64,000 bases of DNA. It comes from Candidatus Omnitrophota bacterium. GTDB taxonomy: Bacteria > Omnitrophota > Gorgyraeia > 2-01-FULL-45-10. The notes under the pieces were generated by a model, which saw only the letters and a list, made by a program, of their open reading frames with translations, did no database searches and was not told the DNA's origin. This document shows positions 9,726 through 63,500 of this stretch, piece by piece. Numbering within the stretch: the first letter of the stretch is position 1; each line of letters begins with the position of its first letter. A program made the translations under genes and the position numbers. Location: positions 25,928-89,927 of the forward strand of contig JAQVUX010000006.1 in the NCBI GenBank assembly GCA_028699255.1. The letters run 5' to 3'.

Positions 9726-9739
9726 CAACAGTATATTCA

Positions 9740-11113: not shown

Positions 11114-11124
11114 TAAGCTCCCTT

Positions 11125-11345: not shown

Positions 11346-11356
11346 AAGGGAGAGTT

Positions 11357-12053: not shown

Positions 12054-12070
12054 TAAAGGATAAAAATATC

Positions 12071-13666: not shown

Positions 13667-13724
13667 TTGCGTCTTGACAATTTACGATTTATAGGGTATA
13701 GTTTAAGCATAAATTCTGGGAAAA

Positions 13725-13740
13725 TGTTCTTCGTGGAACA
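13725..13740. promoter_or_regulatory. Degenerate parS-like site TGTTCTTCGTGGAACA just upstream of parA
   Basis: Right half GTGGAACA matches 7/8 of GTGAAACA; left half matches 5/8. Confidence 0.3.
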
Positions 13741-13749
13741 CTCTAAGAA

Positions 13750-39120: not shown

Positions 39121-39127
39121 AGTTTTA

Positions 39128-41399: not shown

Positions 41400-41641
41400 T
41401 TTTTGGGCAGTTCGCCTTCCATTTTGGATATGGCTTTAGAAGCTTTATGCAGAAAAGATGTAAAATCCGCCTCGCGCATGAGATGCACCACCTTTGTATC
41501 GGCCTTGGCGAAAACCATAAGCCTGTCGCCGGATTTTATTTTTAATTCTTTGCGCAAAACCGCCGGAATAACCAGCTGTCCTCTTTCCCCGACCGTTACC
41601 GAGCCGTAAGCATTACCCTGAAATATAGAACTCATGATCAT
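41396..41641 (-). CDS. AbrB/MazE/SpoVT-family DNA-binding protein, first gene of the efflux operon
   Basis: GQLVIPAVLRKELKIKSGDRLMV swapped-hairpin motif; 81 aa. Confidence 0.6.
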   Translation of the reverse strand: MIMSSIFQGNAYGSVTVGERGQLVIPAVLRKELKIKSGDRLMVFAKADTKVVHLMREADFTSFLHKASKAISKMEGELPKK

Positions 41642-41709
41642 TCTCCTTTGATTTGTATGAAATGTATGTCAAGTATGATAACGCATACCGCGAATAGTGT
41701 CAACAACGA

Positions 41710-42867: not shown

Positions 42868-42997
42868 GCCGCTCCCTCCTTAGGTAAGTATACAGTTTAC
42901 TATTTACCCGGTGTCCGTACAACTTATTTTTTTACGAAACGAATGCTTCGCACTCTTTTCTTGACCGCTCGCCTTGTAGCGGGTATACTTATCACAA

Positions 42998-44184: not shown

Positions 44185-45594
44185 TCATCTCGCCCCTATA
44201 CCCATAATTACGGTTTTTATCGTCTTCAGAAGTATCAGAAGGTCAAGCGTTATAGATCTGTTGCGGACGTAATAGATATCATAGAAAAGTTTTCGCCGGC
44301 TCTCCATTATAGTAGAGGCGTATCCCATATTCACTTGCGCCCATCCCGTGATTCCCGGTTTTGCATTTAGCCTTTCCGCGTAATGAGGCAATTTTTTTAA
44401 CAGGATATTGGTGTAATAGCGGGTTTCCGGCCGCGGCCCGACTGTGCTCATATCGTTGAAAATGACATTTATAAGCTGTGGCAATTCGTCTATCCTGAAA
44501 TGCCTTAAAATACGGCCGACAGGTGTTATCCGGGCGTTCCCGGGTTTGGTCCATCCTTCTATACGTGCTTTGCCGGTCATTGTTCGTAGTTTATACATGA
44601 TAAATATCCTGCCTTTGTAGCCGACCCTCTTATCATAGTAAAAAACAGGCCCTCTCGAAGTCAGTTTTATAATAACGGCAGAAATAAGAATTAACGGGAG
44701 TGTTATCGACAAAAGAATAAGCGATAGCGCTATATCTATGAGCCTGTTTACCATTGGATACCAGGTAGGTATGCGGTTGCGGGCGATAAAAAAATCAAAA
44801 GGAGCCCCAAAAAGCGTTGTCACCCTTTGCTGGGTATCGGCAGATGCGAAGAAGACGACATTCTTTTTTGTACGAAAAGCGGAAAGTATATTTTCGAGAT
44901 TGGTGTCGGAAAGATTGTCCGTAGCGATAAAAACTTTATCAACAGGATACCGGTTCGCTATAGTTTCTATGTCTTTAAGCGTTCCCACAACCGGAAACTG
45001 AGTTAGGTTGACACCCCTTTCTTTATCGTCGCACCGGACGAATCCGACAATATTGTTTATCTCGGCGACCTCATGCAGAAGTGTGAATAGCGCCTGTTCC
45101 GAGTCGTCATCCGCGCCTATTATAAGCAGATTTGCTTTTAAAAAATCCTTATCCATAAATAATCTCACGATATGCGCGGCGGCGTAACGCCAGAAACCCA
45201 AAAACACAATGCTTAAAAGTCCTGCGTATATAGCGGCGAGGCGTGAAAACCTGTATGTCTCCAGGAAATATGCCAGGGTCATTATGGCGAAGAAACCAAG
45301 TATTATTGCCTTTATGATATATGTAAAAGCAATAAAAGTGCCCTTATATTCCGGTTTTCTATAAGTTCCGAGGATGTATAGAAAAAGCGCCCTAGCCAGA
45401 ATCGTGAAGAGGGCGATTTGTGTGTAATAGGTAAAATCTTTTGTTTGACGAAATTCCGGGCCGAATCTTAAGAATAAGGCGAATATGTCCGAGCAATACA
45501 TAACAAGCAGGTCCCCGGCAAAAACTATTCCGCTAAAATATTCTTTTCCGACGGTATTTTTTATTTTCATAGTATCAGGATTTTCCCTTATCAA
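44185..45594 (-). CDS. Exopolysaccharide polyprenyl-phosphate glycosylphosphotransferase (bacterial sugar transferase, WbaP/EpsB-like)
   Basis: C-terminal sugar-transferase domain (RVGYKGRIFIMYKLRTM, GITGWAQV); N-terminal TM region. Confidence 0.8.
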   Translation of the reverse strand: MIRENPDTMKIKNTVGKEYFSGIVFAGDLLVMYCSDIFALFLRFGPEFRQTKDFTYYTQIALFTILARALFLYILGTYRKPEYKGTFIAFTYIIKAIILGFFAIMTLAYFLETYRFSRLAAIYAGLLSIVFLGFWRYAAAHIVRLFMDKDFLKANLLIIGADDDSEQALFTLLHEVAEINNIVGFVRCDDKERGVNLTQFPVVGTLKDIETIANRYPVDKVFIATDNLSDTNLENILSAFRTKKNVVFFASADTQQRVTTLFGAPFDFFIARNRIPTWYPMVNRLIDIALSLILLSITLPLILISAVIIKLTSRGPVFYYDKRVGYKGRIFIMYKLRTMTGKARIEGWTKPGNARITPVGRILRHFRIDELPQLINVIFNDMSTVGPRPETRYYTNILLKKLPHYAERLNAKPGITGWAQVNMGYASTIMESRRKLFYDIYYVRNRSITLDLLILLKTIKTVIMGIGAR

Positions 45595-46396
45595 GTTTGT
45601 TCCACTCGCCGAAAGCCGGGGGGTGGATGATGTAACGGTGTTTCGCGAAATAGTATAAAAGGCCCGCCAGATGAGAAAGGGAGAGGGCGTTGAATGGTTT
45701 CACATGATTTATTTGCTGAGTATGGTGCAAAATTTCAAGTCGTGGATAGTATATGACGCCCTTTCCTGCTTTCCACGACCTGAGGCAGTAATCGATATCC
45801 TCAGGCGCATAGAATATGCGTTCATCCAGCAACCCTATCAGATCCGTAAGGCTTTTTTTGAAGAACCAGCACGCCGATATCGCACTGTCTACCGTAACGG
45901 CGGTATCGGCCGGTAGCGACGTATAATATTCGCATATGCCTGCCTTGCCCGACCCCAGTATTGACTTAAGTTTACAGAGTTTATTCCATAGAGAAGGGAA
46001 GCGTTTTACCGATTGCTGTACGCTTCCGTCAGGCATAATAAGCCGCGGGGCTAATATGCCTATACGCTCATCGGATAATAATAACCGGCACGCTTCCGAA
46101 AGGCTTCCTTTTAATATCTCGGTGTCCGAATCGAGAAAACATATTATATCGCCTGTCGCATGTTTTAAGCCGAGGTTGCGGGTTCTGGTGGTGCCCATAT
46201 TTCTGTCGAGCGATATCTTCGTTATACTCGTGGCATAATGTGTCAGAATAAGGCCCGTCCCGTCTTTCGAGCCGTTGTCTATGACGATAACCTCGTAATC
46301 GATATTTTCGGCGGCGCATTTCCCGAAGATCGACTCGAGACACCGGGCGATATAATTTGCGCTGTTCCATGTAAGAATTATGAAAGATATTTTCAT
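45575..46396 (-). CDS. Glycosyltransferase family 2
   Basis: ISFIILTWNS and VIVIDNGSKDGT motifs. Confidence 0.75.
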   Translation of the reverse strand: MKISFIILTWNSANYIARCLESIFGKCAAENIDYEVIVIDNGSKDGTGLILTHYATSITKISLDRNMGTTRTRNLGLKHATGDIICFLDSDTEILKGSLSEACRLLLSDERIGILAPRLIMPDGSVQQSVKRFPSLWNKLCKLKSILGSGKAGICEYYTSLPADTAVTVDSAISACWFFKKSLTDLIGLLDERIFYAPEDIDYCLRSWKAGKGVIYYPRLEILHHTQQINHVKPFNALSLSHLAGLLYYFAKHRYIIHPPAFGEWNKLDKGKS

Positions 46397-47871
46397 AATG
46401 GCTTTTGTTTTAATTCCTGTTTTAGCAGGTATTTGGCGAACGTTTTTAATGATCTGAATGTCCGCCTTGCCTCCGCGCCGCTAAATAGGCACTGTTTTAA
46501 TTTATACCATATATACCCCGGCCGCAAATAATATTTTCTACGGGCATAATCGCAGAACGCGGTTATCTCCGCGGCGGTGAGGTCCGCACTGCCGACGAGC
46601 GCCTTATGATATCCTTCGGTGGTTAACCATTTATCATATCCGGTCTCTTTTAAAAAACCACCTGCCTTCGACCAGGCATATGCTTCAGTCCCGGGATAGG
46701 GGATGAGCGGGAAGAACTGGGCGGTGTCGAGCCCCAGTTTTATCGCGAACTTAAGCGTTTCGAGCATCGTCCGCCGCGTTTCCCCCGGATTGCCGACCAT
46801 GAAACAGCCGTGGACGAGAAGGCCGGCCTTTTTCGCATTTCGCGCAAATGCGAGCGACTGCTCGAGCTTGATCCCTTTTTTCATATTATCAAGGATCTTC
46901 TGCGAGCCGCTTTCGAAGCCGGGTATGACTATTCTGCAACCGGCCGCTTTTAGAAGTTTCATCGTTTCAAAATCCAGGTCTACGCGCACGTTAGCCCACC
47001 AGCTTATGCGTTGCGCCGTGCCCTTTTTTATCAAGAGTTCGCATATCCTGCGTGCCCGCCCAACGTCGCTGGTGAAAGTATCATCTTCAATACCTACAGC
47101 TTTTACTTCAGGCATATCCTTAATGATATATTCAAATTCTGCTGTTACATTATCGGCGCTTCTGAGTCGGTAGCAGTGGCCGTGGAATGTCTGAGGATAT
47201 ACACAGAAGAAACAGCGGTGAGGGCAACCTCGGCCCGCCATTGTCATTACCATAGGGTACAACCCCGCCGAGAAAAAATATTTTCTCACATCGAGATGTT
47301 TTTTATAAACGGCGCTTACGAACGGCAGGTCGTCGAGATTTTCTATGAAAGGGCGGTTTTGATTTTTAATTATTATCTCACCCTGTCTGTAAATAATCCC
47401 CGCAATTCCTGCCATCCCGGATTCGTGGCTTAAAGCGCCGGCGAGGTCACGTAGCGTATAGTCATATTCGCCATGCGCAATCGCATCAATTTTTTTATTC
47501 AAACGAAGCGTTTCTTCCGCCAGCGCGCTTGGATGCGTTCCTACCAGGACTATCACGCTTTTCGGAAGAGCGTCTTTAAGCAACGCGCCGACTTCTATGT
47601 CATTATAAATACTCGGTGTGCTCGTATCGATTACTATAAGCCGTGGTTGGAATTTTAATGCGAGCTCGACTGTTTTTGGCCGGTCATATTTGTACGCGCA
47701 GGCATCTATTAATTTTACTTCATGGCCGGCTTTTTCAAGTACGCCTGTCGCGTATGCGAGCCATATGGGATAGTAAAGCGTTCCGCTTTTTGCGATAGCC
47801 GGACTGCGCGACGATCTCGAAAATCTGCCAAGTTCTGTTTTGAAAGGAGGATTCAGCAGTAGTATTTTCAT
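46393..47871 (-). CDS. B12-binding domain radical SAM protein
   Basis: N-terminal B12-binding domain, then GRGCPHRCFFC CxxxCxxC motif. Confidence 0.75.
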   Translation of the reverse strand: MKILLLNPPFKTELGRFSRSSRSPAIAKSGTLYYPIWLAYATGVLEKAGHEVKLIDACAYKYDRPKTVELALKFQPRLIVIDTSTPSIYNDIEVGALLKDALPKSVIVLVGTHPSALAEETLRLNKKIDAIAHGEYDYTLRDLAGALSHESGMAGIAGIIYRQGEIIIKNQNRPFIENLDDLPFVSAVYKKHLDVRKYFFSAGLYPMVMTMAGRGCPHRCFFCVYPQTFHGHCYRLRSADNVTAEFEYIIKDMPEVKAVGIEDDTFTSDVGRARRICELLIKKGTAQRISWWANVRVDLDFETMKLLKAAGCRIVIPGFESGSQKILDNMKKGIKLEQSLAFARNAKKAGLLVHGCFMVGNPGETRRTMLETLKFAIKLGLDTAQFFPLIPYPGTEAYAWSKAGGFLKETGYDKWLTTEGYHKALVGSADLTAAEITAFCDYARRKYYLRPGYIWYKLKQCLFSGAEARRTFRSLKTFAKYLLKQELKQKPL

Positions 47872-49190
47872 GGGATCGCCTCCTTTTCCGGCCGATAAAC
47901 AGCGGTGACAAGTCCGACGAGCCCTGCCTGTAGCCAGAAGTATATCTTAAAGAAATCACTTATGAAAAATAGCATTATAGTCATAGCAAAAAGGCCGGTT
48001 GTAAATCCGAGAACAATGAATCCTCGCGGATCCGATCGCGCCAAAAGCCATTTTGCCGCGGAAGAGCCTCTATAAATCGTTACCCCGAAAAACCATATCG
48101 CAAAGATAAGCGCAAATATACCGTTTTCTGCGCCTAATTCGAACCAGCTATTATGAGCCTGCTTTGTAATATATTCGGTAATACGGCCTTGCCCTACGCC
48201 CCACCAGATGTGACGCGACATTAGATCGTAACTCTGATTCCATAAAGTGCCGCGACTTGCCATGAATGCGCTTCGATAAGTAAACCCCTTTATTATAAAT
48301 CCGAGGAAAGGGATAAAAGCCGCTGAAAAAAGGGTGATTAAAAGAATAGAGCGCAAACCAATCAGTCGTTTAATGATTTTTTGCGGTATGTGCAATGTCA
48401 AAAACAATATGCCGGCCAAAAAACTGAAAGCTATCCCGCGGGAAAACGTGAGAACGAGATGAGCAACCAGTAGTAGAGACGCGCATATATAATATACCGA
48501 TTTTTGCCCTTTAATTATGCGCGAAAGCGTTATCCCAATGATACAAAAAAGAAGAGGTAATATATAATTACCATAGGCGAGTGAATCCCATTCAAAAGCG
48601 CGCAATCGGGCTACGATATCTGTGGAGTAAAGATATAACATGCCGGCGTCTTCTCTGCCGGAAGCAATTTTCGTCAAACCACTCATGAATAAAGTGAATG
48701 ACGAGATCCCGATAATAGCGTATGCCACACCGGTGATTGTAATAACGCGATTTGTCAACGCGATATCTTTTTCTTCCTGGATGTATACGAGATAAGCGGC
48801 GACAATTGCCAGATGCCAGGCGATCAAAAGGTAATTGCGGATCGACTCTGTCGAGTTCCCCGTAAAAATCCCTGATATAAGAAATGAAGCCATGAGTCCG
48901 ATCAGCGGTATTATGCCTGGCCTGGCGATAGTCAGGACGCGATTTATTCTTTGCCGCAGGTCTTTGATCAATAACATTCTTCCGAAGAGGAGGATACTGA
49001 AGATCAGGTATGGTTTCAGGGCAAAGCCGATAGCGAGGCTGTAACGCTGGATACCGTTTAGTGGGATAAGCGCGTTGGCGAAACCATACCCTCTCGTGAA
49101 GAAAAGCGCAAGGACGGCTATCATAAGAAACGCCGTTATGACCAGCGCAAGAATATAGAACTGCGCGAAGAATTGCGAAAGATCAGCCAT
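47868..49190 (-). CDS. O-antigen ligase / Wzy-like polysaccharide polymerase
   Basis: 440 aa polytopic membrane protein with a large loop near the C-terminus. Confidence 0.6.
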   Translation of the reverse strand: MADLSQFFAQFYILALVITAFLMIAVLALFFTRGYGFANALIPLNGIQRYSLAIGFALKPYLIFSILLFGRMLLIKDLRQRINRVLTIARPGIIPLIGLMASFLISGIFTGNSTESIRNYLLIAWHLAIVAAYLVYIQEEKDIALTNRVITITGVAYAIIGISSFTLFMSGLTKIASGREDAGMLYLYSTDIVARLRAFEWDSLAYGNYILPLLFCIIGITLSRIIKGQKSVYYICASLLLVAHLVLTFSRGIAFSFLAGILFLTLHIPQKIIKRLIGLRSILLITLFSAAFIPFLGFIIKGFTYRSAFMASRGTLWNQSYDLMSRHIWWGVGQGRITEYITKQAHNSWFELGAENGIFALIFAIWFFGVTIYRGSSAAKWLLARSDPRGFIVLGFTTGLFAMTIMLFFISDFFKIYFWLQAGLVGLVTAVYRPEKEAIP

Positions 49191-50331
49191 TCAAAACCCT
49201 CTCTATCTCATGAATTATTTTTTCAGAAAATATTTCGGTGGTATGTAATTTCGCAAATCGCAGTCCGTTTTGCGCGTATGTTTGAAACAGCACAGGATCC
49301 TGTAATATTTTAACGATCGTATCGGATAAAGATATATGATCCTTATATCTGAATGTTTCGCCGCCATTGCTTTGTGCGATCAGCTCAGCCGCGCCGCTTA
49401 TGTCCGGGCCTATTACCGGGATCCCCACTGCGCCGCTCTCCAAAAGAGCGAGCGAAAAACCTTCCTGTCCAGCTACGACCGAAAGCGCGCTCACTTTTAA
49501 TATGGCCGGTATATCAGACCTTTCACCTAAAAATTTAATTTTTTCAACGGCACCCGAAGCTTCGGCGAGACGCGAGAGTTCGTTCATATATGCAATATAT
49601 TCTTTGCGAGTACGGCCCGCCAAGAATAGCCGCGCATCCGGATATTTTTTGACCACCATAGCAAAAGCGCGGATAATAGTGTCCTGATGTTTTTCCGGTT
49701 GGATTATACCGATGGATGTGATTATTTTATCGGCAAGTTTTATGTCAAACTCTTTCCTGATGCCGGCATCGTTTACGCCCGTGAACCGCGATATGTCAAT
49801 GCCGTTATAGATTACCACGGCTTTACTATGTAGCCGCGGTAATGTCTTAGAGATATCATAGGAAACGAATATCGTTTTTTTTACGGCGGGTAATGACCCA
49901 AACCATCCTAACAGTCGCGTAACGAATTTATCACGGAACGGGTTATGGATGTGCCAGATAACAGGTATGGATAATAATTGTCCGGCGATGGCTCCCCATA
50001 TAAAAGCCCGTGAACCGTTTATATAAATCAGATCCACGCGGCTTTTTCTCAAAATACCATAAAAAGCGCCAACCGTCCGGAAAGAGTCAAAGGCGAATTT
50101 AAAATAATCAAAAATATTCTTAGTGACTAGCGAATAATTATTTACCGGCAGGATGTGATATCTGAATCCGTGTGACCTCAACGCATCCGAAAGATCCCCG
50201 TCCCCCGGGATAACATACTCAACATTATAATTACCGGTTTTTTGGAGCGCCAGGCCTATTTGCAAAGAGACCCGCTGTCCTCCTCCCAAAAAAGGCAGGA
50301 CTTCCCATATAAGTATATTTTTTTGCGCCAT
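49183..50331 (-). CDS. Glycosyltransferase family 4
   Basis: GT-B fold; C-terminal E-x7-E-like motif. Confidence 0.75.
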   Translation of the reverse strand: MAQKNILIWEVLPFLGGGQRVSLQIGLALQKTGNYNVEYVIPGDGDLSDALRSHGFRYHILPVNNYSLVTKNIFDYFKFAFDSFRTVGAFYGILRKSRVDLIYINGSRAFIWGAIAGQLLSIPVIWHIHNPFRDKFVTRLLGWFGSLPAVKKTIFVSYDISKTLPRLHSKAVVIYNGIDISRFTGVNDAGIRKEFDIKLADKIITSIGIIQPEKHQDTIIRAFAMVVKKYPDARLFLAGRTRKEYIAYMNELSRLAEASGAVEKIKFLGERSDIPAILKVSALSVVAGQEGFSLALLESGAVGIPVIGPDISGAAELIAQSNGGETFRYKDHISLSDTIVKILQDPVLFQTYAQNGLRFAKLHTTEIFSEKIIHEIERVLNG

Positions 50332-50348
50332 TTTCCCCTCGGCTATAT

Positions 50349-51800
50349 TTATATGCCGAACGATTTTTTTATAATAGGAGCGATATCCGTCAGGGTCATT
50401 TGTTCTTTAAAAAGGTTTTCCGAAATGTTTTTCGTAAATAAGATGGGCGTCCGGCGTCTATGTGCGCCCGGTTTAAGCTGGAAAATGCCCGGCTCGTTTG
50501 TGAAAAGCCCCTCATGACATGCCCAGCCTACCCCATAACGTTCGTCGAGCTCGAAGAGTATCTCCGGGTACCTGTGCAGATATAGGCCATTATACAACTT
50601 CTCGCGCCTTAAGACCCATTTTACAACACTTGTGCCGGTTTTTTCATCCTTTAAAGTTTGGAGTGAATCGATAATGTCTTCTATGACCCTGTTTTTTTCG
50701 GTTTTGACAGTATCATTTATACGGATGCCGCCATAGCTATAATTTTTTACCGCGGAAAGATCCGACACATACGCTTTGGTATTATACCAGTCGATGTCGC
50801 CTGCTGAAGCGAATATCTGTTTCCATACCGGAAATTTTTTTGCCAATCGCATAACAATACCGCCCGCGCCAAAACGTTCGATAAAACTACCGAGAATTTT
50901 TTTAAAGTGACGGTTTTTTTCAGTATTTCGCACCGAACGTTCTTTTACCGCAAGATATCCCCGATGTCTAAGCCATTCATTGATATTGACCGTTTGCGAA
51001 GGGCGGGGTCCGTGGCCATGATCACTTAATACCATTATGGCATCATCTTTTTCACAACGTGAGACAAACTCTCCTATCATCCTGTCGGCTTCCGTGTAAA
51101 AATCCGGTATAACCGATTCAAATTCATTGGCGCCAGGATATAAAGGATGATTTTTGTCATAGTACGGCCAGAAGACATGCTGGATCTCATCCAATGCCGA
51201 ATAGTACGCGAAAAAACACCGCCAACCTTCTTTATCGAACATTGTTAGGGCGAGCCTGTGTTCTTCGGCAAGGCGAGCGCGCAAAGTATCGACAAGTTTT
51301 TTGAGTTTTGATTTTGCGAAAAACTCGGGGACAAGATTAAGCTTTTTAGGGTCAGGAGAATACTTTTTGATAAGATTACGCGGAAATGCCGATAGGGGGG
51401 TGGTTTCTGACCGCGGCTCGGTCGAACGCGTTATCATGCCTCCTTTTACCACCCATCCGGGGGAGACTATCATAGGAAGAACTACGCATACTCCTATGCC
51501 CGAAGCCGACAGTTCATCCCAGAATGTTTTGCCCATTATAAACCCATCCTCTACTTTGAATGGCCGGTAACCGCCGTTTTTATCAGCGGCATTAACGAAA
51601 TTAATGACTCCATGTTCCGCCGGGTTCATGCCGGTGTAGATGCTGGCCCAAGCCGGCGTCGTATCCGGAGGAAAGATCGACGAGAAGTCTGTCTTCGGGG
51701 TCGAAGCGCCAAGAGAAGCAATATTCGGCAGACGTCCGATCATGGAGTGAGCCACATCCCTATCCATCCCATCGAATCCCAGGATGATCATGCGATTCAT
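50349..51800 (-). CDS. Alkaline-phosphatase-superfamily protein (type I phosphodiesterase / nucleotide pyrophosphatase-like)
   Basis: LGFDGMD and VLSDHGHG metal-binding motifs. Confidence 0.55.
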   Translation of the reverse strand: MNRMIILGFDGMDRDVAHSMIGRLPNIASLGASTPKTDFSSIFPPDTTPAWASIYTGMNPAEHGVINFVNAADKNGGYRPFKVEDGFIMGKTFWDELSASGIGVCVVLPMIVSPGWVVKGGMITRSTEPRSETTPLSAFPRNLIKKYSPDPKKLNLVPEFFAKSKLKKLVDTLRARLAEEHRLALTMFDKEGWRCFFAYYSALDEIQHVFWPYYDKNHPLYPGANEFESVIPDFYTEADRMIGEFVSRCEKDDAIMVLSDHGHGPRPSQTVNINEWLRHRGYLAVKERSVRNTEKNRHFKKILGSFIERFGAGGIVMRLAKKFPVWKQIFASAGDIDWYNTKAYVSDLSAVKNYSYGGIRINDTVKTEKNRVIEDIIDSLQTLKDEKTGTSVVKWVLRREKLYNGLYLHRYPEILFELDERYGVGWACHEGLFTNEPGIFQLKPGAHRRRTPILFTKNISENLFKEQMTLTDIAPIIKKSFGI

Positions 51801-52459
51801 GATACGCCGCCTTTCTGTCTGATTACTACGAGCGATTCTTTTAGCACATCGGAAGCCGGCCCAATCCCGTTTATGGTAATTATATCCGTGTTATTAACCA
51901 TCGTTTTGTAATAATAAAGCCTATGCTTGAGATAATCGATATGCGGGATGTCTTTTTTGCGGGCCATCGATATCTCCGATGGGACCGATACAAATATGAC
52001 TATATCCGGGTTTGGAAAGAACCGAGCCCAATGCTTGAGCATTGCCAGAAATGCGTTTTCATCGAGTCCGCGATTCGAAGCTATATTTACAACGGTGTCA
52101 AAAAAGTATCGATCACATATTACGCCGTGCCCAACAAGGAGCCGGAGCGTTACCTTGAAGAACATTTCGAGCGTATATTCCAAAAGAACCGCCGTTTCAT
52201 ATAGAAACATGGCAAATTTATTGGTGCCGGCTTTTTTCAAACTTTTGTCGTATGAAGCATAATCCCCTCGAGGGGAGGATTCTTTCATGAGAATGCGTTT
52301 TGCCAGAAGGACGAACGGACGCAATAATAAAAGCTCGTAACCGCCCCATATTACGTTGTATGGCGCCTCCGGTGAGGAGATAATCTTGCCGATAGAATGC
52401 GCGAGCGTTGATTTCCCTGATCCGTCCGTGCCCATAATAACTATAAGTTTTCCTTTCAT
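51797..52459 (-). CDS. Thymidylate-kinase-like P-loop kinase
   Basis: IVIMGTDGSGKSTL Walker A, typical of the dTMP and deoxynucleoside kinase family; 220 aa. Confidence 0.5.
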   Translation of the reverse strand: MKGKLIVIMGTDGSGKSTLAHSIGKIISSPEAPYNVIWGGYELLLLRPFVLLAKRILMKESSPRGDYASYDKSLKKAGTNKFAMFLYETAVLLEYTLEMFFKVTLRLLVGHGVICDRYFFDTVVNIASNRGLDENAFLAMLKHWARFFPNPDIVIFVSVPSEISMARKKDIPHIDYLKHRLYYYKTMVNNTDIITINGIGPASDVLKESLVVIRQKGGVS

Positions 52460-53460
52460 TCCAAAACCTCATTGTATATTTTCAAAAGTTCGCTCGAAGC
52501 GATTTCCCAGGTATGAGACATTACTTTTTCCCGTGTTTTTACCGGCGCCTTCCCGATATTCAGGACGGACTCCCGGATCTTTTCATAGATTTCCGATGGA
52601 TTGTTAACATATGACAGGCCTTCGCCTTCGTTGAAATACTCCGGAAGCGCGCCGAAGCGCGATGTTATTACCGGGATATTCGTTGCCATTGCTTCAAAAA
52701 CCGAAAGCGGGGCCGCAATAGAGCTCGATGGATTTATTGTGGGGAAAACGCAGATATCGGAAGCCTGATAGAGCTCATTGATATTCGGCAAATAGCGCCG
52801 TATTATTATAGCGTCATTTTTAATAAGTAGTTTTAAGACAGGTGTATCCGCCCGGAAAATCGGACTGGCGACCACGAGTATTTTATAGGGCGCTTTAACT
52901 GGTTCCGGAGGGAAAAGCGCCTCAAGATTCCGTCCCGTAGTGATGTGTCCCACATGAAGCACGAGCGGTATGGCGCAGAGCAGACCGTATTTTTTTCGCA
53001 GTGCCGTTTTTTCTTCCTGTGAAACGCCGTGGAAACGCGAAATATTAACACCGATTTTAAGCCGTGCGGTTTTTGCGCCTGCATCGTGAAATGCGGCCTC
53101 AATATCAGCGGATAACGCTGTTACGCAGGCGGGCATCAATACTTTCATCATGTGTGATCTGCCGAAGAATGGTAACGAAGGCGGCTGGAGCGCGGCAAAG
53201 ATTATTTTACACTTTGGAAGACATACCCCGCATATCCGGGCAAATAAGAATGTCTTAAAATTTGCCCGGAGGAATATATGCATAATCTCGGGGTCAAAAG
53301 TTTTCAATGTTCTGCGAAAAAAGCCGGGTGTTGCCGCTTCATGTACATTGCAATGCAAAACCTCATGCTTTTTAGACAGCTCATAAGCAAATGCGCTTGC
53401 TACGTTGCGCTGGCCCTCATCTAAAAAAATGCCCCTGTTGCTTATTATGCAAATTTTCAT
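52456..53460 (-). CDS. Glycosyltransferase (GT4-like)
   Basis: C-terminal GT-B domain; ILVVASPIFR motif. Confidence 0.65.
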   Translation of the reverse strand: MKICIISNRGIFLDEGQRNVASAFAYELSKKHEVLHCNVHEAATPGFFRRTLKTFDPEIMHIFLRANFKTFLFARICGVCLPKCKIIFAALQPPSLPFFGRSHMMKVLMPACVTALSADIEAAFHDAGAKTARLKIGVNISRFHGVSQEEKTALRKKYGLLCAIPLVLHVGHITTGRNLEALFPPEPVKAPYKILVVASPIFRADTPVLKLLIKNDAIIIRRYLPNINELYQASDICVFPTINPSSSIAAPLSVFEAMATNIPVITSRFGALPEYFNEGEGLSYVNNPSEIYEKIRESVLNIGKAPVKTREKVMSHTWEIASSELLKIYNEVLE

Positions 53461-54674
53461 ATTATCCCGCGCACGATAAGGTTTTTTCTTAATTGTGCCG
53501 AACTTGCTTCAAAAGAATAGCGCTCGCTTATGAAACGCGCCGAATACTCGGAAAATTTTTCAAGGACTTCGTTACTGCAAGAGAATGCTTCGCGCAAGCC
53601 GTTTTCTATAGACGCAGATGAGCTTTCTTTTAAAAGCCAACCTGTTTTATCCGGTATGACTACGCCCGGCATACCACCTACGTAGGTCGCGATAACAGGG
53701 GTCCCGCATGCAAGTGCTTCCAGCACGGCGTTGGGCAACCCTTCGCTTATAGATGGCATAATAAGTATTTTGGAACTATTAAAGATCGCCGGCATGTCAT
53801 TATATCCAGCCCAACTTTTTAATGACACATTAGGAATATTTTTTATTCTATTGCGGACAAAGTTGTCAAGGTTTCCACTGCCGACCACAAGCATCGTTAT
53901 TTTCTTCGCAGTTGTTTTATTATAGTTTTCAAAAGCATCCAAAAGCTGAGGCACACCTTTTTCGACAGATAGCCGGCCTACAAAACATAAGTCGAATTCG
54001 CGTTTTTCTATGGGGAGCTTTTTATGAAACAGGTCGACATACACCACATTTCGCATCTCAACCAATTTTGGAGCGTGTTTATCGAGTATTTTTGCGAAAG
54101 TTTGTACCATTATCGGGTGTTCTATCAAGATATATGAGCTTAACCATAAGTGGAGTTTTTGCAGAATAGCGAGTATGGAAGATAGGAAATGGCCCTTGAT
54201 GCCGGAATATTTAGTTGAGGCGATAAGAGAAACGTCTCCGACAAAAGTAAACATGGTAATGGCGCCTCGCATTTTTGCATAAAGATGCGGTATGGGGAAT
54301 ATGTGCGCCAGGAAGAAGAGTATTTTAACGTTTTTTAAATCGTATTTTTGCAAGACTCGACACACGGCTAACTGTATCCGAAAACCCGCCCACATTTTCG
54401 CAAAGAGATTTTTCTTCTTCCGGCCGTCCGGTTCGACGGAAACCCAGCTGATCCAGTCAGGTGAACCGTTTGACGCACCGTCGGCACCCGGCATAAGTAC
54501 AATAATTTTTTCAAAAATCACACTGAAGAGCGCCAGATATTTTTTAAGTACCGTCTGGCCCGCCTCATTGTCTAAGGGCACCGATTGGGTTATCCATATC
54601 AAGAGGGGAGCGCGCTTGTTGTTTTCTATACGCAATCTTCTTGTCTCCTCCCACCACCAGTGATAATTATCCAT
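53457..54674 (-). CDS. Glycosyltransferase family 4
   Basis: FVGRLSVEKG and ISEGLPNAVLEALACGTPVIAT motifs. Confidence 0.75.
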   Translation of the reverse strand: MDNYHWWWEETRRLRIENNKRAPLLIWITQSVPLDNEAGQTVLKKYLALFSVIFEKIIVLMPGADGASNGSPDWISWVSVEPDGRKKKNLFAKMWAGFRIQLAVCRVLQKYDLKNVKILFFLAHIFPIPHLYAKMRGAITMFTFVGDVSLIASTKYSGIKGHFLSSILAILQKLHLWLSSYILIEHPIMVQTFAKILDKHAPKLVEMRNVVYVDLFHKKLPIEKREFDLCFVGRLSVEKGVPQLLDAFENYNKTTAKKITMLVVGSGNLDNFVRNRIKNIPNVSLKSWAGYNDMPAIFNSSKILIMPSISEGLPNAVLEALACGTPVIATYVGGMPGVVIPDKTGWLLKESSSASIENGLREAFSCSNEVLEKFSEYSARFISERYSFEASSAQLRKNLIVRGII

Positions 54675-54685
54675 GACAGCCCCTA

Positions 54686-57343
54686 TTACTTCTTATTTTT
54701 TTTGAGAAATTGAAAAATCATGTTAAGCCGCAACGGCTCATGCCTGAGCGAAAGGAACCCTACGGCAAGGACGGCGTACAAAATGAATATCCCCGCCGAC
54801 ACGCCTGCGACAGGTAAAACGCCGCCCATCTCTTCAATCCCCGGCGCTAAAAAGCGCGTAAATACAGTTATGAGAACACTTGTTATAATGTAAGGCGCGG
54901 CATGCCACATGAAACTTTTTTTCATATCCCCCGATAGATACACGAACGATACAAGTAAGGATATCACATAAGCGCCGGATGAAAAAGCGAGAACACCGAG
55001 CGGCACCTTTAAGGCAAACATCGCTATAAGAGCCAGGTATGTCAGCCCAGCCGTCGCGTTAGCCCAAAGGTTTACAGACGGTTTTTTTAAAGTGAACAAC
55101 ACAAAGGAGGGGACGATATTGCACGTCCTGAATAAATAACCGACGGTGAGCCCCTTTAACACCCATGTCGCTTTTTCCGCGAAAGCATTGCCCATCCATA
55201 TACGTAAGACCGGCCCTCCCATAATGAATATCCAGGTTGCCGCGAGAAAAGCCAGAAAGAGCTCCGCGTCCAGCGCTATCCTGAATATCTTCTTCCAGTC
55301 TTTTTCTTCCCGGTCGAGATCTTTTTCAACCACTCCGCTTAAATGAGGCAGGAAGACCTGGGCAATCCTTACGATGATCTGTTCTCCCTTGCCAAGTATG
55401 GCCATAGGAACACTGTATAGTGTTACGGCCGCCGCGTTCAAAAAGAAGCCGATAAAGAGCCTGTCGAATATTCCCATGGCAGTAAGCGTTACGTTAGTGA
55501 GGAGGGAAATGCCGCCGAACGAGGCTATCTCTTTAAGCTCGCGCAGGGTGCCCGCAATACGCATGTTCCATCCGGGGAATACCCTTTTTAGCATAAAGAT
55601 GCCGATAAAAGCGAAGCACCAATTCAATATGACGGAATATTCTACGGCGGGTGCCAAAGCACTGGTTATAGACACTATGACGACAACTCCTATGGTATTT
55701 AGCGCATTCCTACCCACTAAAAGAGCGCTTGAAACATCGAACCTTTGGAAACCTATCGCTATAGAGGCCATAAGATTTACTATGATGGTCGGCAGGACGC
55801 CCAGAGCCAGTAGATAAAAAGATTTTAACGAATCGGCGTAATGCCGGTCGGAGGCGTTGAAAAAATGCGATGCTAATACCGGCGCGGCCAAAAAGAGCAA
55901 AATCGAGAAAAGAGCGCCCAGCCACGCCGTAAAACGCAGGATGCTGTTTATGTGCCTGTTGAGGCCATCCAGGTCTTTTTTTGCAATGTATTTTGGAATG
56001 AAGGCGGTAGCCGTCATTTTAAGTCCAAAATCCAGCAGGTCTGCTAACCCAAGCAATATACTGCAAATCGCCCATATTCCATACAGCTCCAGGCCCAATT
56101 CTTTAACGAGAAATGGCGTTGCGAATATCAATAAAAGAGCGGGGAGTAATAATGTGAGAAGATTGTATGCGCTGTTTCTGGTGACTGTCCGCAGGGGCGG
56201 CATAAGCCGCCGGTCGGGATTCGTTATTTGATATATGCTTTTTCGCAGGATAGGGAACAGGACGTAAAAGAGTTCTTTTAACAGTATTATCGGGGAGTGG
56301 CGCAGGCTTATCGAAATACCCGAGGCGCACCCGGGGCATTTTTTGAAGAACATGCACCTCTCCGCCGCTTTATATTCGGGCGAGCGTAGTATTTCCGTTA
56401 ACGGATTTATGGTAAGATTGCCGCGTCTTCCCATTGACCAGCAACCCCCGAATACGTTTCCCCTCGAATCGATACACAACCTTTTCTGGGAGGTAACGCA
56501 GGGAAGTTTTTCTTGCCGCGGATTTGCGAAATAATTGCGCATGAAAGTGATTTCAGAGTATAAAAGATTGACGGAATCCCGATCACGGTTTTTCTGCTCG
56601 ACCAGAATGCGTTGTGCCTCGGCGACGGTAGTTTCATCCGGCCAGTAGTCGTCTCTTTCCATGGATGACCGCCCCGCTCTGAAAAAATACGGGGTCGAAT
56701 CGAGAAGATTAAGGCCGATGGGGATATTTAATTTTTCCCGGAAGGCTAAAACAGAGGGCAGATAAGCTATCGTTTTTTTTGTAAGCGTGAAGCTTATGAT
56801 GCCCCTAAGCTTTCCTTCATTTATCCTGCTTGCGATAAGCTCGCACGCTTTTTCCACTTTTTCATACGAGCCTTTTATGCCGCGGACGGATTCGAACTCT
56901 TCTCCTATACCGTCAACGGATACGGCTATGAATTTCGTACCTGACTCTATTAGCGTGTCGAGCAGAGGCTTATCGAGGAGATAGCCGTTTGTGATCAGTC
57001 CGACGCTCATACCGAAGTTTTTCGCTGTTTCTACGAGTTCCGGCAGGTCTTTCCGTAGAAGCGGTTCGCCACCCGCGAAAACCACATTCGATATGCGGTT
57101 ATCTTTAAGTTGTTTTAATACGTTTTTCCATCCGTCTGTGGTAAGCTCTCCGGCGCCGTCACTGTGCCATGCGCCGCAGGTAACGCACTGGAAATTGCAC
57201 CGGTCGGTTACGTTGACCGCCGCATAGGAATGCGCCTCTTTCAAGAGAGGATACAGGAACGGGATTCGATATGCGATATTGGCGTTTATAAGTGAAGGGA
57301 AGTATCGTGCGGATATATTAAAAATACTCTTTTTTTTATGCAT
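54686..57343 (-). CDS. Fusion protein: N-terminal radical SAM/SPASM domain plus C-terminal Wzx-like polysaccharide flippase (PST family)
   Basis: CNFQCVTC radical SAM motif; SPASM-like Cys clusters (CVTSQKRLCIDSRGNVFGGC, CMFFKKCPGC); then ~500 aa with 12 or more predicted TM helices. Single ORF of 885 aa. Confidence 0.6.
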   Translation of the reverse strand: MHKKKSIFNISARYFPSLINANIAYRIPFLYPLLKEAHSYAAVNVTDRCNFQCVTCGAWHSDGAGELTTDGWKNVLKQLKDNRISNVVFAGGEPLLRKDLPELVETAKNFGMSVGLITNGYLLDKPLLDTLIESGTKFIAVSVDGIGEEFESVRGIKGSYEKVEKACELIASRINEGKLRGIISFTLTKKTIAYLPSVLAFREKLNIPIGLNLLDSTPYFFRAGRSSMERDDYWPDETTVAEAQRILVEQKNRDRDSVNLLYSEITFMRNYFANPRQEKLPCVTSQKRLCIDSRGNVFGGCWSMGRRGNLTINPLTEILRSPEYKAAERCMFFKKCPGCASGISISLRHSPIILLKELFYVLFPILRKSIYQITNPDRRLMPPLRTVTRNSAYNLLTLLLPALLLIFATPFLVKELGLELYGIWAICSILLGLADLLDFGLKMTATAFIPKYIAKKDLDGLNRHINSILRFTAWLGALFSILLFLAAPVLASHFFNASDRHYADSLKSFYLLALGVLPTIIVNLMASIAIGFQRFDVSSALLVGRNALNTIGVVVIVSITSALAPAVEYSVILNWCFAFIGIFMLKRVFPGWNMRIAGTLRELKEIASFGGISLLTNVTLTAMGIFDRLFIGFFLNAAAVTLYSVPMAILGKGEQIIVRIAQVFLPHLSGVVEKDLDREEKDWKKIFRIALDAELFLAFLAATWIFIMGGPVLRIWMGNAFAEKATWVLKGLTVGYLFRTCNIVPSFVLFTLKKPSVNLWANATAGLTYLALIAMFALKVPLGVLAFSSGAYVISLLVSFVYLSGDMKKSFMWHAAPYIITSVLITVFTRFLAPGIEEMGGVLPVAGVSAGIFILYAVLAVGFLSLRHEPLRLNMIFQFLKKNKK

Positions 57344-57388: not shown

Positions 57389-58828
57389 TCAGCGTTTCTC
57401 ATAATAGCCGTATTCTCCAACCCCGTCCATTACCCTATTGACTATTATGCCTGTTATTGTTCCGTGCGATTCTATTATTCTATCTTTCGTTTCACGAATC
57501 ATACCGACGGAAGTATGCGGGCCATTGACGACAAGCACTATTCCATCGACAGCAGATGAGAGAAGGGAGGTGTCGGCAACGCTGAGCATTGGGGCCGAGT
57601 CCAAAAGGATAATGTCGAATCTTGTTTTTAATAATGATATCAAAGAAACGGTCTTTTTCGAGTAAAGCAATTCCGCCGGGTTTACGCAGAAGCCCCCGGT
57701 GGAAATCAGGGATATGCCTGGTATTGAAGTGGACCGTATAATGTTGTCTATCGCCGCCTTGTCGGTTAAAAATTCGCTAATGCCGGGTTTTTGAGGAAGG
57801 TTGAATATTGTATGGAGGCCTCCGCGGTGCAGATCCATATCTATCAGAAGAACACGTTCGTTCATACGAGCAAAAGTTATCGCTAGATTGGAGGACACAA
57901 AGCTTTTACCTTCCCGCGGCATCGTAGAAGTGATAAGAAGGCTTTTTAGTGAACGCTTCTCATGGGTCAAAAAACGTATCGCGGCCGCCGCTACGCGGAA
58001 CGATTCGGAAACCGCAGACTCGGTATATTTATGACAGACCAATTCTTTATCACAGGCAGAATTCGACCAGATATTGACCGATGGGATATAGCCGAGAAAA
58101 TGAAAACCGAGATTGCGCGCGTCTGCGGCGGTGAATTTTGTAGATTCGACGAATTCCAGGCCTAATGCCGCCAAAACTCCGAGGAATATCCCTGCCAATA
58201 ACCCGACGATAAAATCGATGAGGCGTCTTGGGCGTATCGGCTCGCGCGGAGGCCTCGCAAGATCGACAATGCGTATTCGCGAAATCTCTACATCTTCTCT
58301 AAAAATACGCCCCGCCCTTAAAGCGGCTTCCTGCGCCGCCATAGTTCGGGCTTTGGTATCTTCTTCGATATAGGCATTGGCAAGCGCGTTGGCAATATTG
58401 CTTGCCAATCGCGGATCATTGTTTTCGACGTGTATGAGAACAATGTGACTATTCTTTACAATCTCTATGCTTATTTTTTTTCTTATCTGTTCGATAGGAT
58501 CCATAGTGTCATTGAAAATATTTTTTTCACCCAACCGTAAATGTTTAAATACCATTTCAGTCAGGGTATACGATTGCAGGATTTTGGCCTGTGTTTCATA
58601 ATATTGTGTTTCGCTGTAATCCGGTTGATAGACGTCTTGAATATTAGTAATTCTCGGTGGTGTTTTTTCTATAAGAATGCTCGAGGTTGCCATGTAAACA
58701 GGCGGTGCAACAAAGATATACAGCGCGGTTGCTATTAATGCGGTCGAAAAAAAGCCAATGGCTATGAGCCATCGCTTTTTCAAAATATGCTTGATATCAT
58801 CAATTGTCATCTCTTGCGGATATGCCAA
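57389..58828 (-). CDS. Polysaccharide co-polymerase / BY-kinase (compact Wzc/GumC-like tyrosine autokinase)
   Basis: N-terminal Wzz TM domain; C-terminal P-loop TSTMPREGKS...LLIDMDLHRG; 479 aa. Confidence 0.75.
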   Translation of the reverse strand: MAYPQEMTIDDIKHILKKRWLIAIGFFSTALIATALYIFVAPPVYMATSSILIEKTPPRITNIQDVYQPDYSETQYYETQAKILQSYTLTEMVFKHLRLGEKNIFNDTMDPIEQIRKKISIEIVKNSHIVLIHVENNDPRLASNIANALANAYIEEDTKARTMAAQEAALRAGRIFREDVEISRIRIVDLARPPREPIRPRRLIDFIVGLLAGIFLGVLAALGLEFVESTKFTAADARNLGFHFLGYIPSVNIWSNSACDKELVCHKYTESAVSESFRVAAAAIRFLTHEKRSLKSLLITSTMPREGKSFVSSNLAITFARMNERVLLIDMDLHRGGLHTIFNLPQKPGISEFLTDKAAIDNIIRSTSIPGISLISTGGFCVNPAELLYSKKTVSLISLLKTRFDIILLDSAPMLSVADTSLLSSAVDGIVLVVNGPHTSVGMIRETKDRIIESHGTITGIIVNRVMDGVGEYGYYEKR

Positions 58829-58846
58829 GCTAATCCTCGTTTATTA

Positions 58847-59725
58847 TCAGAAAAATGATTCTGGAACAGATATTGTATCATTCGCTTTTAACAGTACGTC
58901 TTTTGACTTATTTCCGGTATGCAGAATAGTAGTAATAGGAACAACTATAACGATATTTTTATCGCCGTCTTTTCGTATTATTTTTGTAGCGTCTCCCGCG
59001 GCGTATTCGTCGAAACCACCTGCGAGCGCGATTGCCTCGACGGCGGTAAGTCCGGCTTTTAGTTCATAAGCCCCTGGCTTTTTAACCTCACCCAAAACGT
59101 ATACCTTAGCGTATTCTTTAGTAAAAGGGTTGACTCTCTGGTCTACAAGCACCGATATGGTATCGTTTGGTTTTAATATAATGTCTTTTGATCTGTCGCC
59201 GGTCTGCAGGATGGTTGCCACCGGAACGATTATGACGGTATCTTTATCGCCGTCTTTTCGCATAATCTTTGTTTCATCTCCATCGGCGTATTCACCAAAA
59301 CCACCTGCGAGCGCGATTGCCTCGACGGCGGTAAGTCCGGCTTTTAGTTCATAAGCCCCTGGCTTTTTAACCTCACCCAAAACGTATACCTTAGCGTATT
59401 CTTTAATAAAAACGCTGACTTTCGGATCTAAGAAATAACCCTCTTTTAAAAGTCCGACAAGCGTTATTTCTACTTCACGTGCGGTAAATCCGGCAACATC
59501 AATATTGCCAAGAGGAGAATAGGTGATAGTACCATCGGCAGCTACGCGAGCCTCTTTACTAAAATCCGGCTCTCCATGCACTTCGATTCTAAGAAGATCG
59601 CCTACAGCTATACGATAATCGGAGTTTTGTGCTTCCTGAGCGTATGTGAGCGCGCCCGCAAATACCACTAATAATGCCATAGATAATAAGGCTAAAAATT
59701 TTTTCATTTGCACCTCGCTTAGCAA
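58847..59725 (-). CDS. Polysaccharide export protein (Wza-like, SLBB domains) with an internal tandem duplication
   Basis: Signal peptide; two ~95-aa repeats (KEYAKVYVLGEVKKPGAYELKAGLTAVEAIALAGGF...) sharing a ~110-nt identical DNA core. Confidence 0.7.
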   Translation of the reverse strand: MLSEVQMKKFLALLSMALLVVFAGALTYAQEAQNSDYRIAVGDLLRIEVHGEPDFSKEARVAADGTITYSPLGNIDVAGFTAREVEITLVGLLKEGYFLDPKVSVFIKEYAKVYVLGEVKKPGAYELKAGLTAVEAIALAGGFGEYADGDETKIMRKDGDKDTVIIVPVATILQTGDRSKDIILKPNDTISVLVDQRVNPFTKEYAKVYVLGEVKKPGAYELKAGLTAVEAIALAGGFDEYAAGDATKIIRKDGDKNIVIVVPITTILHTGNKSKDVLLKANDTISVPESFF

Positions 59726-60143: not shown

Positions 60144-60224
60144 ATTCTTGGAAGGCATGGCACAAAAATGGCACAGTAAACGGAACCAAGCAGAGTATGG
60201 AAAAACTTGCATGGGGAGGAAAAA

Positions 60225-63200: not shown

Positions 63201-63500
63201 AATGATTTGAGCCTTACACACAGAGATAAGTTTGTTACGTTAATCGTTTATAAATTAATTGAAAAAAATGCGGAGATCGAAACAAAAAAAATAGGATTAT
63301 CCAAATTGGCAGAGTGCAAACCAGCATATAATGATCATGAGTCAAACTTTGATCACTTATTAAGCATCATAGAAAAAATTGCGGACGCAAATAACAAAAA
63401 AATAGTAGCTGATGAATTTTTGAAATCTATGCCAACAAAAGAAAAAATGGATAAAAAAGAAGAAACGTTTTGGAATAAAGTCGAGAAAATGACAAAGTGA
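60225..63500 (+). CDS. KAP-family P-loop NTPase with ~750-aa C-terminal extension
   Basis: GSWGTGKTT Walker A; two TM helices inserted before Walker B LIIVIDNLDRC (the KAP hallmark); RBS GGGGAGG 5 nt upstream of ATG at 60225; the track ORF starts at TTG 60207. Confidence 0.75.
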   Translation: MVEEKSSSTSYLSDSAVNKLTEDKFKHAEIAKIIKQITMECPMPFTIGLFGSWGTGKTTISNFFRDMLLKIEKIAVVYFDVWKYERDCLRRQFLITLVDSLKKQKKLGNKFKLNKALFFNIGTPEIKIKWLTWLIHVSIYIIPLVLIFIINVYCYRQMAMTNSAVFIFTVIYLLVFLKMLYESIKTIAQSISVETTTIEQDRLSEPDEFESEFDRVLKEMENVDRLIIVIDNLDRCEHRKATELLSTVKTFLEKDKCVYVVQCDEKAIKDHLKKVYEEIDPDEYLRKFFNTVINIPSFIRSDLDNYTEKLLGITKIPEFNASEVGTIITTAFRENPRRIKQFINMLISYLLLAKERESEISKSLLPEGVITKNIPFLTKFLILRHNWPDFFEIVKDDPSILDEINFSYRDHKIQLIEKIKNILNKDRKLDDFLRSTQLYTTKYPRAFLYLKQSSEELKIPESEDIRIALLDGKQSFIEEKFKMIKVNKELITAYEKIVLDLLDNSSDRLTRLFHILNVSISGSRKIGINFSQNLHNKAIDIISSKLADYFYRFDPEDIFMVLDQCSPTLRKPIINRCSKLLSESKLPGSDELFGTIDLKKYQESLIHQISLHMSWFEEEKNDIQKTIAVSYTHDLEIIEQLCQDNNLIKFFISKDALGKIVDQISDAEVQETKEGEKIKLERRIKILKSCDSLMNNNIKLALITKLDNLLKLVNPQPLTESKRQFLASLSTVLANFNLDVINNNKEITILSKDLLSGYNAAGSEQIRTEYIIPLILIEEKVGADMKSTINSVVTPFLTNTKPNLISEIVSKLTNLGVKKFIEEKYKSIFFIRASQYPAIFDSLWTNYGPELKDALFVNMIVSSHYMTAMNKIKSANYKVEKPSLIAQAIIEKLPLINANEKAEFYTALSALNCGDSQEILEKYIVQLRGELISGDMQREEIGYRALKEGKNSKVLNLETCKTIVNDLINSLEKIEILTQKNTFAFDTVIFLWNDLSLTHRDKFVTLIVYKLIEKNAEIETKKIGLSKLAECKPAYNDHESNFDHLLSIIEKIADANNKKIVADEFLKSMPTKEKMDKKEETFWNKVEKMTK

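Follow-up and report, generated by a model that had tools for sequence, protein, structure and literature searches.

A predicted radical SAM enzyme joined end to end with the Wzx-type flippase of an Omnitrophota exopolysaccharide locus

Introduction

In the flippase WzxE both termini are cytoplasmic, as are the N-termini of MOP flippases, and TM1 bends during the transport cycle and is central to the conformational change (PMC11706664). TacF and MurJ are flippases with 14 TMs in which TM1 and TM8 flank the inward-facing entrance, beside the TM13-14 groove, and an arginine of TM1 binds the diphosphate; TacF monitors phosphocholine decoration while transporting (PMC13385700). MOP flippases can thus be tuned to the tailoring state of what they carry. 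Little is understood of the way in which finished repeat units are chosen by Wzx-type flippases, or of how tailoring at a late stage is coordinated with export.

Among radical SAM (rSAM) enzymes, the Twitch domain is a shortened SPASM domain that offers Cys ligands for a single cluster, and BtrN/SpeY-type enzymes act on carbohydrate-like substrates, their auxiliary cluster being a proposed electron acceptor (PMC9012708). In literature searches nothing came up on a fusion of radical SAM enzyme and flippase, on an rSAM enzyme acting on undecaprenyl-linked glycans, or on BlsE together with the term twitch. Here, a gene in which the two protein kinds are joined was analysed in a 64,000-nucleotide stretch of Candidatus Omnitrophota DNA (the window, meaning the whole stretch at its full length).

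Results

Architecture of the fusion gene

The gene is a single unbroken ORF (positions 54686-57343, minus strand) with an ATG start and an 885-aa product; the exact protein is on deposit as MDD3906076.1 under the label 'radical SAM protein', and its source is a Candidatus Omnitrophota metagenome-assembled genome (MAG), where it lies on a contig of 154 kb. Its features are as follows.

54686..57343, minus strand: whole fusion gene, 885 codons and stop
56228..57343, minus strand: complete radical SAM module, aa 1-372, delimited by end-to-end alignment with stand-alone family members
57176..57199, minus strand: CX3CX2C motif CNFQCVTC (C49, C53, C56), predicted ligands of the SAM-binding [4Fe-4S] cluster, invariant in a 75-member alignment
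57065..57073, minus strand: GGE motif (G91, G92, E93), predicted to bind the SAM methionine, invariant in the family alignment
56327..56500, minus strand: Twitch-like auxiliary-cluster region, aa 282-339 (C282-X18-C301 ... C336-X2-C339)
56204..56227, minus strand: ITNPDRRL linker (aa 373-380, about 8-9 residues) that connects the final rSAM helix to the flippase, placed by alignments and model
56201..56203, minus strand: in-frame Met381 codon, three codons upstream of the aligned Met1 of the stand-alone flippase P0150
54686..56203, minus strand: complete MOP/PST (Wzx-type) flippase module, aa 381-885, with 14 predicted TM helices and a basic C-terminal helix

A sequence-only reading of the window had claimed an 885-aa ORF that opens with a CxxxCxxC radical SAM core and continues into a PST-family, Wzx-like part with 12 or more TM segments, and had named a domain search as the check that could refute the first half. 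All of this held: CNFQCVTC occupies aa 49-56; Pfam Radical_SAM (PF04055) matched aa 43-176 with 83.8 bits (cutoff 29.5), alongside a Fer4_12 match; and Polysacc_synt_3 (PF13440) matched aa 419-723 with 51.7 bits (cutoff 23) in a part with 14 predicted TM helices and a MurJ/WzxE/MATE fold. NCBIfam gave only generic matches on the fusion protein (NirJ, AhbC, PqqE, MoaA, BlsE etc.), all far under their cutoffs.

The N-terminal module has the partial TIM-barrel fold of radical SAM proteins. Its GGE motif corresponds in role to that described for BlsE (PMC3715490), and with the cluster-binding cysteines also in place the first 372 residues read as a radical SAM enzyme with all catalytic motifs intact. 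The same reading had spoken of SPASM-type clusters, which stood only in part: auxiliary cysteines do exist, but just four (C282, C301, C336 and C339) are conserved family-wide in the 75-sequence alignment, located in a beta-hairpin/helix region; SPASM (PF13186) scored 16.7 bits on aa 282-339, under its cutoff of 21.5; and the seven-Cys SPASM motif CX2CX5CX3C is absent, with CX2C(XC) in its place. At position 341 the fusion protein has Ser, where 76% of the family carry Cys. The auxiliary ligands of BtrN are spaced C...C / CX2C, which is the basis of comparison with this module. The auxiliary domain is probably Twitch-like, with one auxiliary cluster.

At the junction, alignments of stand-alone rSAM homologues (~365-375 aa) cover 92-100% of residues 1-375, with 37-45% identity, and stop exactly at the query's '...RKSIYQ' (aa ~372), and P0150 (514 aa, 39% identity), the closest stand-alone flippase among the matches listed, places its residue 1-2 at query 384-385. 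From these ends on either side, two complete proteins are joined by about nine residues. Met381 is plausibly the ancestral flippase start, and the origin of the fusion looks, from the alignments, like the joining of adjacent genes through stop-codon loss. No Shine-Dalgarno-like sequence was found upstream of Met381; since about half of the window genes are also without one, this neither supports nor excludes separate expression of the flippase. In the full-length model, a helix (351-374) is followed by a loop (375-381) and the TM1 helix (382-416), and the segment ahead of TM1 is strongly basic (RK...RR...R..R, aa 367-389).

Independent assembly and a diverged population

Where the source is a MAG and the architecture is otherwise unseen, it is conceivable that two separate genes were joined artificially, by a frameshift or as a chimera. 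The Logan assembly of SRR22315503, which is independent, returned 7,357 bases including the entire fusion gene with zero differences. A second population (SRR8925730, locus L001) has a syntenic cluster with an 885-aa orthologue (96% aa and 94.4% nt identity) that differs without indels by 96 synonymous and 37 nonsynonymous codon changes. Between the two populations dN/dS (Nei-Gojobori) was 0.081 across junction codons 373-420, against 0.109 in the rSAM part and 0.103 in the flippase part. Both halves are equally under purifying selection. An identical sequence from an independent assembler, together with a 5.6%-diverged copy in the same frame with a synonymous excess over the junction, effectively excludes a frameshift or chimera, and the artefact explanation is hardly credible; the assembly check that had been proposed for a frameshift-made fusion thus turned up none. 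Two complete proteins are fused end to end, and the fusion is genuine and selectively maintained.

The flippase module and its locus

The homologues found for aa 381-885 are ordinary 'O-antigen/teichoic acid export' proteins with PF01943, PF13440 and PF03023, and the columns invariant among them (P410, D438, G440, R534, W716 and G783) are all kept. Fourteen TM helices were obtained by model and by hydropathy, the last two at low pLDDT in the model, and the fold agrees with the MOP plan of two six-helix bundles, to which TM13-14 may be added. Foldseek of the flippase half returned MurJ, WzxE and MATE at probability 1.0 and target TM-scores of 0.55-0.81 (MurJ over 500-516 columns; WzxE at 0.78-0.81). 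The full-length AF2 model was built on an alignment of flippase homologues only, a combined alignment having misplaced flippases onto the rSAM half. The flippase half reached pLDDT 70-94 for most helices; the rSAM half lay below 50 over large parts, and since the alignment held flippases only, this half is poor and the inter-domain geometry is not trustworthy.

The neighbouring genes are co-directional with the fusion gene.

58847-59725, minus strand: upstream export gene, Wza-like (Poly_export/SLBB)
57389-58828, minus strand: upstream export gene, Wzc-like co-polymerase/kinase (Wzz+AAA_31)
57389..59725, minus strand: the upstream export genes together
44185..54674, minus strand: rest of the Wzx/Wzy cluster

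The order is Wza-like, Wzc-like, fusion, GT4, GT4, thymidylate-kinase-like, Phosphodiest, GT4, Wzy_C, B12-binding rSAM, GT2 and Bac_transf, the last being the initiating transferase. Intergenic gaps around the fusion gene measure 11-45 nt, and no nucleotide-sugar synthesis genes adjoin it in the cluster. Because the co-directional block holds no other MOP gene, the fusion is the flippase of the locus: by gene content and homology, the locus is a complete Wzx/Wzy-dependent exopolysaccharide locus whose single MOP/PST flippase is formed by the C-terminal 505 residues, with the predicted role of translocating Und-PP-linked repeat units.

An unfused orthologous locus (L011, on the JGI contig Ga0326864_10000768 that carries P0150) has a B12-rSAM, GT2, GT4, GT4, kinase-like, Phosphodiest, GT4, Wzy and flippase, and all nine genes and their counterparts in the window match each other reciprocally, with 33-51% identity. 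Its flippase P0150 is a stand-alone protein of 514 aa starting at query residue 384, and a Twitch rSAM is absent from the 12 kb seen (~5 kb of the contig lie outside that view). An unfused flippase with no visible Twitch rSAM suggests that flipping in this glycan system can do without the rSAM, which would be an accessory; judging from the orthologous genes, coupling of rSAM and flippase is not obligatory for a system of the window type.

The radical SAM family and the rarity of the fusion

The exhaustive phmmer search covered 1.84 billion representatives, and the matches listed are the best 150 of 36,725 hits. The only other protein that matched both halves among these 150 was P0001, a 96% variant; the remaining matches listed cover either residues ~10-370 or ~385-870. 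That the architecture is non-standard, as had been claimed, is borne out, with no second rSAM-flippase lineage among the best 150 of 36,725 phmmer matches, a depth below which unrelated, weakly scoring rSAM-MOP fusions could rank. Scans of GTDB species representatives and JGI metagenome contigs gave no further fusion copies; the scan hits L002, L003 and L013 were MoaA-like proteins, irrelevant to the fusion.

At E<1e-30 the rSAM family amounts to more than a hundred clusters of 50% identity. Seven independent contexts of stand-alone members (L004/5, L006/7, L008/9, L012, L014, L015 and L016) were all polysaccharide clusters (7/7), with glycosyltransferases, Wzy_C polymerases, sugar epimerases and further rSAMs, and also with methyl-, acetyl- and carbamoyl-transferases; a GT2 of ~300 aa directly follows the rSAM in 5/7. 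The family is uncharacterised and resident in polysaccharide-biosynthesis clusters. P0151, the closest stand-alone relative among the matches listed (45% identity), lies in a phosphonate-type cluster with a PEP mutase-cytidylyltransferase and a phosphonopyruvate-decarboxylase-like TPP enzyme, then GT2. About 34 of the best 150 of 36,725 phmmer matches are multidomain proteins, and 18 of these were domain-scanned: GT2 is the partner in nine, sometimes with Methyltransf_24 and TPR, and the other partners are class I methyltransferases (3), CDP-glycerol glycerophosphotransferase, Phosphodiest and extra rSAM copies. P0002 and P0021 are two additional GT2-rSAM fusions. No flippase domain was found in the scanned multidomain members, nor was one hidden in 900-1350-aa matches with several matched stretches, and TM-like segments were absent from the multidomain members and from 75 of the 76 stand-alone members. 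Given the polysaccharide contexts and the lack of TM segments, the module appears to be a widespread, normally soluble glycan-pathway enzyme for which the flippase is a unique partner. That the family's C-terminal helix is an amphipathic one that binds the membrane is doubtful (muH 0.39-0.51, net charge +3, not clearly over other helices).

In an Arn/Gtr-like scheme a GtrB-type GT2 would make an Und-P-monosaccharide, on which the rSAM would act and which a PMT_2 GT-C enzyme would use. This lead agrees with L014 and, in part, with L004. Against it, the rSAM-paired GT2 in L004, L008 and L015 is without a C-terminal TM hairpin, and a GT-C enzyme is absent from the window.

Discussion

Topology and proposed mechanism

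MOP N-termini are cytoplasmic and the linker is strongly basic, which together would place the rSAM module in the cytoplasm, where it could act only before flipping; we infer that it sits a few residues from the substrate entrance. To the question of membrane side raised by the sequence-only reading the predicted answer is thereby the cytoplasmic one, and that reading's proposal that the glycan is modified at the moment of translocation is not upheld: the module could act only on the pre-flip side.

The best explanation as a whole, which we hold with moderate confidence, is that the rSAM tailors the lipid-linked unit just before its export by the attached flippase. Its linker of ~9 residues would tie the enzyme to TM1 at that helix's cytoplasmic end, and TM1 and TM8 are the helices that frame the substrate entrance. 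Its substrate would be the finished undecaprenyl-diphosphate-linked repeat unit at the inner membrane face; SAM would be cleaved reductively, and the 5'-deoxyadenosyl radical would take an H atom from a sugar carbon, leading to a BlsE/BtrN-like tailoring (oxidation, decarboxylation or epimerisation). The tailored unit would then be handed directly to the attached flippase, making tailoring the last cytoplasmic step before export, and the rSAM would be a pathway add-on, not required for flipping. As a side point, SAM and low-potential reductants are available in the cytoplasm.

Several findings weigh against pre-flip tailoring. Every other family member examined is soluble or fused to soluble enzymes, which fits nucleotide sugars equally well; the L011 flippase is unfused, with no Twitch rSAM in the 12 kb seen; the fusion comes from a single lineage among the best 150 of 36,725 matches; the full-length AF2 model offers no reliable inter-domain geometry; and identity to BlsE is only 16%, the BlsE model scoring far below cutoff.

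A natural covalent fusion of a tailoring-type enzyme and a flippase is a concrete, testable case of physical coupling and a Rosetta-stone clue to the function of a widespread rSAM family. It suggests that in anaerobes the family takes part in glycan assembly close to the membrane, at the lipid-linked stage. In that case, the diversity of surface glycans would have a so far unexplored source in radical chemistry.

Alternative explanations

The main alternative to pre-flip tailoring, possible though doubtful, is a loose fusion with no mechanistic coupling: stop-codon loss would have merged neighbours, the product being kept for equal expression or because membrane localisation is harmless, while the target of the rSAM's tailoring would be an early intermediate or a nucleotide-sugar precursor in soluble form. 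This would agree with stand-alone and otherwise-fused family members that are without TM segments, with partners such as class I methyltransferases that are typical of nucleotide-sugar tailoring, and with the L006 rSAM, which lies among NDP-sugar genes (epimerases, NTP transferases and SDRs); the short linker and in-frame Met381 resemble simple stop-codon loss, and the L011 orthologue is unfused. However, the window cluster is without nucleotide-sugar synthesis genes beside the fusion, and a purposeless 43-kDa Fe-S domain on a 9-residue TM1 tether would probably be selected against, whereas junction dN/dS is 0.08.

A further reading, which is unlikely, is that of an enzyme-coupled flippase, in which the rSAM docks over the TM1/TM8 entrance and modifies the transporter-bound repeat unit, so that tailoring gates translocation. 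If true, this would be a covalent version of the TacF 'gatekeeper' principle and the first radical SAM enzyme known to act on a polyprenyl-diphosphate-linked glycan.

It is very improbable that the rSAM is a non-catalytic sensor or gate that regulates the flippase according to SAM, redox or Fe-S status. Being tethered directly to TM1, on which the conformational change centres (PMC11706664), would suit such a role, as would Ser at position 341 where 76% of the family have Cys; yet the catalytic motifs and four auxiliary Cys are all intact, identity to stand-alone enzymes is 37-45% over the full module length, and rSAM dN/dS equals that of the flippase half. We regard as similarly remote an rSAM that modifies the polyprenyl carrier or another membrane lipid and not the sugar: the sequence match behind this idea spans only the generic core (aa 32-151), BlsE, SkfB, PqqE, SuiB, anSME and MoaA all score higher structurally, and the family is partnered by glycosyltransferases and sugar methyltransferases. 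That a peptide (RiPP) maturase has been fused here to a MATE-like exporter can scarcely be entertained, as no RiPP-recognition domain was detected, gaps of 11-45 nt leave no space for a precursor gene, the context is wholly polysaccharide, the locus contains Wzy and has no flippase besides the fusion, and in L011 the orthologue is simply the flippase of its cluster.

Comparison with known systems

BlsE (cytosylglucuronate C5-decarboxylase, PDB 7VOB; PMC3715490) is 16% identical to the rSAM module. The BlsE family model TIGR04466 scored 55.9 bits against a cutoff of 400 and matched the N-terminal core only, which indicates fold resemblance and not membership. BlsE is a soluble antibiotic-pathway enzyme that acts on a nucleoside sugar; unlike the fusion, it is neither in a glycan-export locus nor fused to a transporter. 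The Twitch dehydrogenases of the BtrN/SpeY type (PMC9012708) have, like the rSAM module, a four-Cys auxiliary site, which would imply one cluster. GT2-rSAM and methyltransferase-rSAM proteins (P0002, P0193, P0204 and P0218) contain the same module at 29-35% identity over ~300-350 residues; their partners are soluble enzymes, never a transporter, and these proteins are uncharacterised.

Wzx/PST MOP flippases (WzxE, PMC11706664; TacF and MurJ, PMC13385700) have Polysacc_synt_3 and the MOP fold in common with the fusion, and the Wzx type shares a locus with Wzy, Wzc, Wza and an initiating transferase. With 14 predicted TMs the fusion resembles TacF and MurJ and differs from classical Wzx with its 12. 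That a flippase can discriminate a tailoring modification has a precedent in TacF, whose recognition is non-covalent and within the cavity. WzxE, TacF and MurJ carry no enzyme domain on TM1, unlike the fusion, whose architecture is a new combination of two known protein kinds in one Omnitrophota lineage as far as visible.

Further genes of the polysaccharide cluster

Besides the radical SAM (rSAM)-flippase fusion, a second radical enzyme, a B12-binding rSAM protein adjoining a GT2 gene, is encoded in the polysaccharide cluster of the window.

46393-47871, minus strand: B12-binding and Radical_SAM protein (class B type), 492 aa
50349-52459, minus strand: gene pair for a P-loop protein resembling thymidylate kinase (220 aa) and for a 483-aa Phosphodiest/alkaline-phosphatase-superfamily protein
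58866-59430, minus strand: tandem internal duplication of ~280 nt within the Wza-like Poly_export/SLBB gene (58847-59725)

The 492-aa protein has a counterpart at 48% identity in L011, the orthologous cluster with a stand-alone flippase, and is also found in L001, the syntenic cluster from a second population; B12-binding rSAM proteins are again among the genes of L004 and L014, two polysaccharide loci carrying stand-alone members of the fusion's rSAM family. The kinase-like/Phosphodiest pair is kept in L011 (41% and 51% identity, respectively), and in the multidomain protein P0213 a Phosphodiest domain is fused to an rSAM of the same family as the N-terminal half of the fusion. Together, the conserved pair and P0213 hint at a phospho-substituent on the glycan. 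In the Wza-like gene, the repeat copies share 84% DNA identity at a spacing of 285 nt and give rise to two SLBB domains; because a stretch of 36 residues is identical between these, the duplication looks recent.

Flanking genes and replication origin

3057-15458: chromosomal origin region (gyrA, gyrB, dnaA, yidC, parA, parB)
9740-11113, minus strand: dnaA
Within 37135-44182: tripartite efflux genes (MacB-type ABC transporter, HlyD-type adaptor, TolC-like OEP)
41710-42867: FemAB-like/GNAT protein
42998-44182: BBP2 beta-barrel porin
60207-63500, plus strand: KAP-family P-loop NTPase, 1,097 aa

On one flank of the cluster, the efflux genes are followed by those for the FemAB-like/GNAT protein and then the BBP2 porin, both of which may be members of the polysaccharide system. 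The KAP NTPase gene directly adjoins the locus; its region is strongly AT-rich (GC 33% versus 45-50% elsewhere) and may be an island of foreign or defence type. The GC skew switches sign at ~10-12 kb; the origin of replication of the Omnitrophota chromosome therefore lies within the window.

Neighbourhoods of stand-alone rSAM proteins

L004 6148-7959, L008 6193-8022, L014 5178-6998: ~605-aa protein immediately upstream of the rSAM
L012 2-3048: PEP-mutase/cytidylyltransferase fusion, phosphonopyruvate-decarboxylase-like TPP enzyme, APS-kinase-like protein
L014 8107-10951, L004 10066-11010 and 16889 onward, L015 13366 onward: GtrB/ArnC-like GT2 and PMT_2 (GT-C) glycosyltransferases

The ~605-aa protein, largely soluble by hydropathy and without a Pfam match, is conserved in three unrelated clusters, preceded by a Hexapep or unknown gene and followed by the rSAM and then the GT2, and looks like a so far undescribed partner of the rSAM-GT2 pair. 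P0151, the closest stand-alone relative (45% identity), adjoins the three genes listed for L012, a cluster for a phosphonate-decorated glycan. No GT-C enzyme is encoded in the window. In several stand-alone-rSAM clusters, a GtrB/ArnC-like GT2 that bears two TM helices at its C-terminus is co-encoded with a PMT_2 glycosyltransferase; these are hallmarks of periplasmic glycan modification via polyprenyl-phosphate sugars, and the substrate of the rSAM there could therefore be a lipid-linked monosaccharide.
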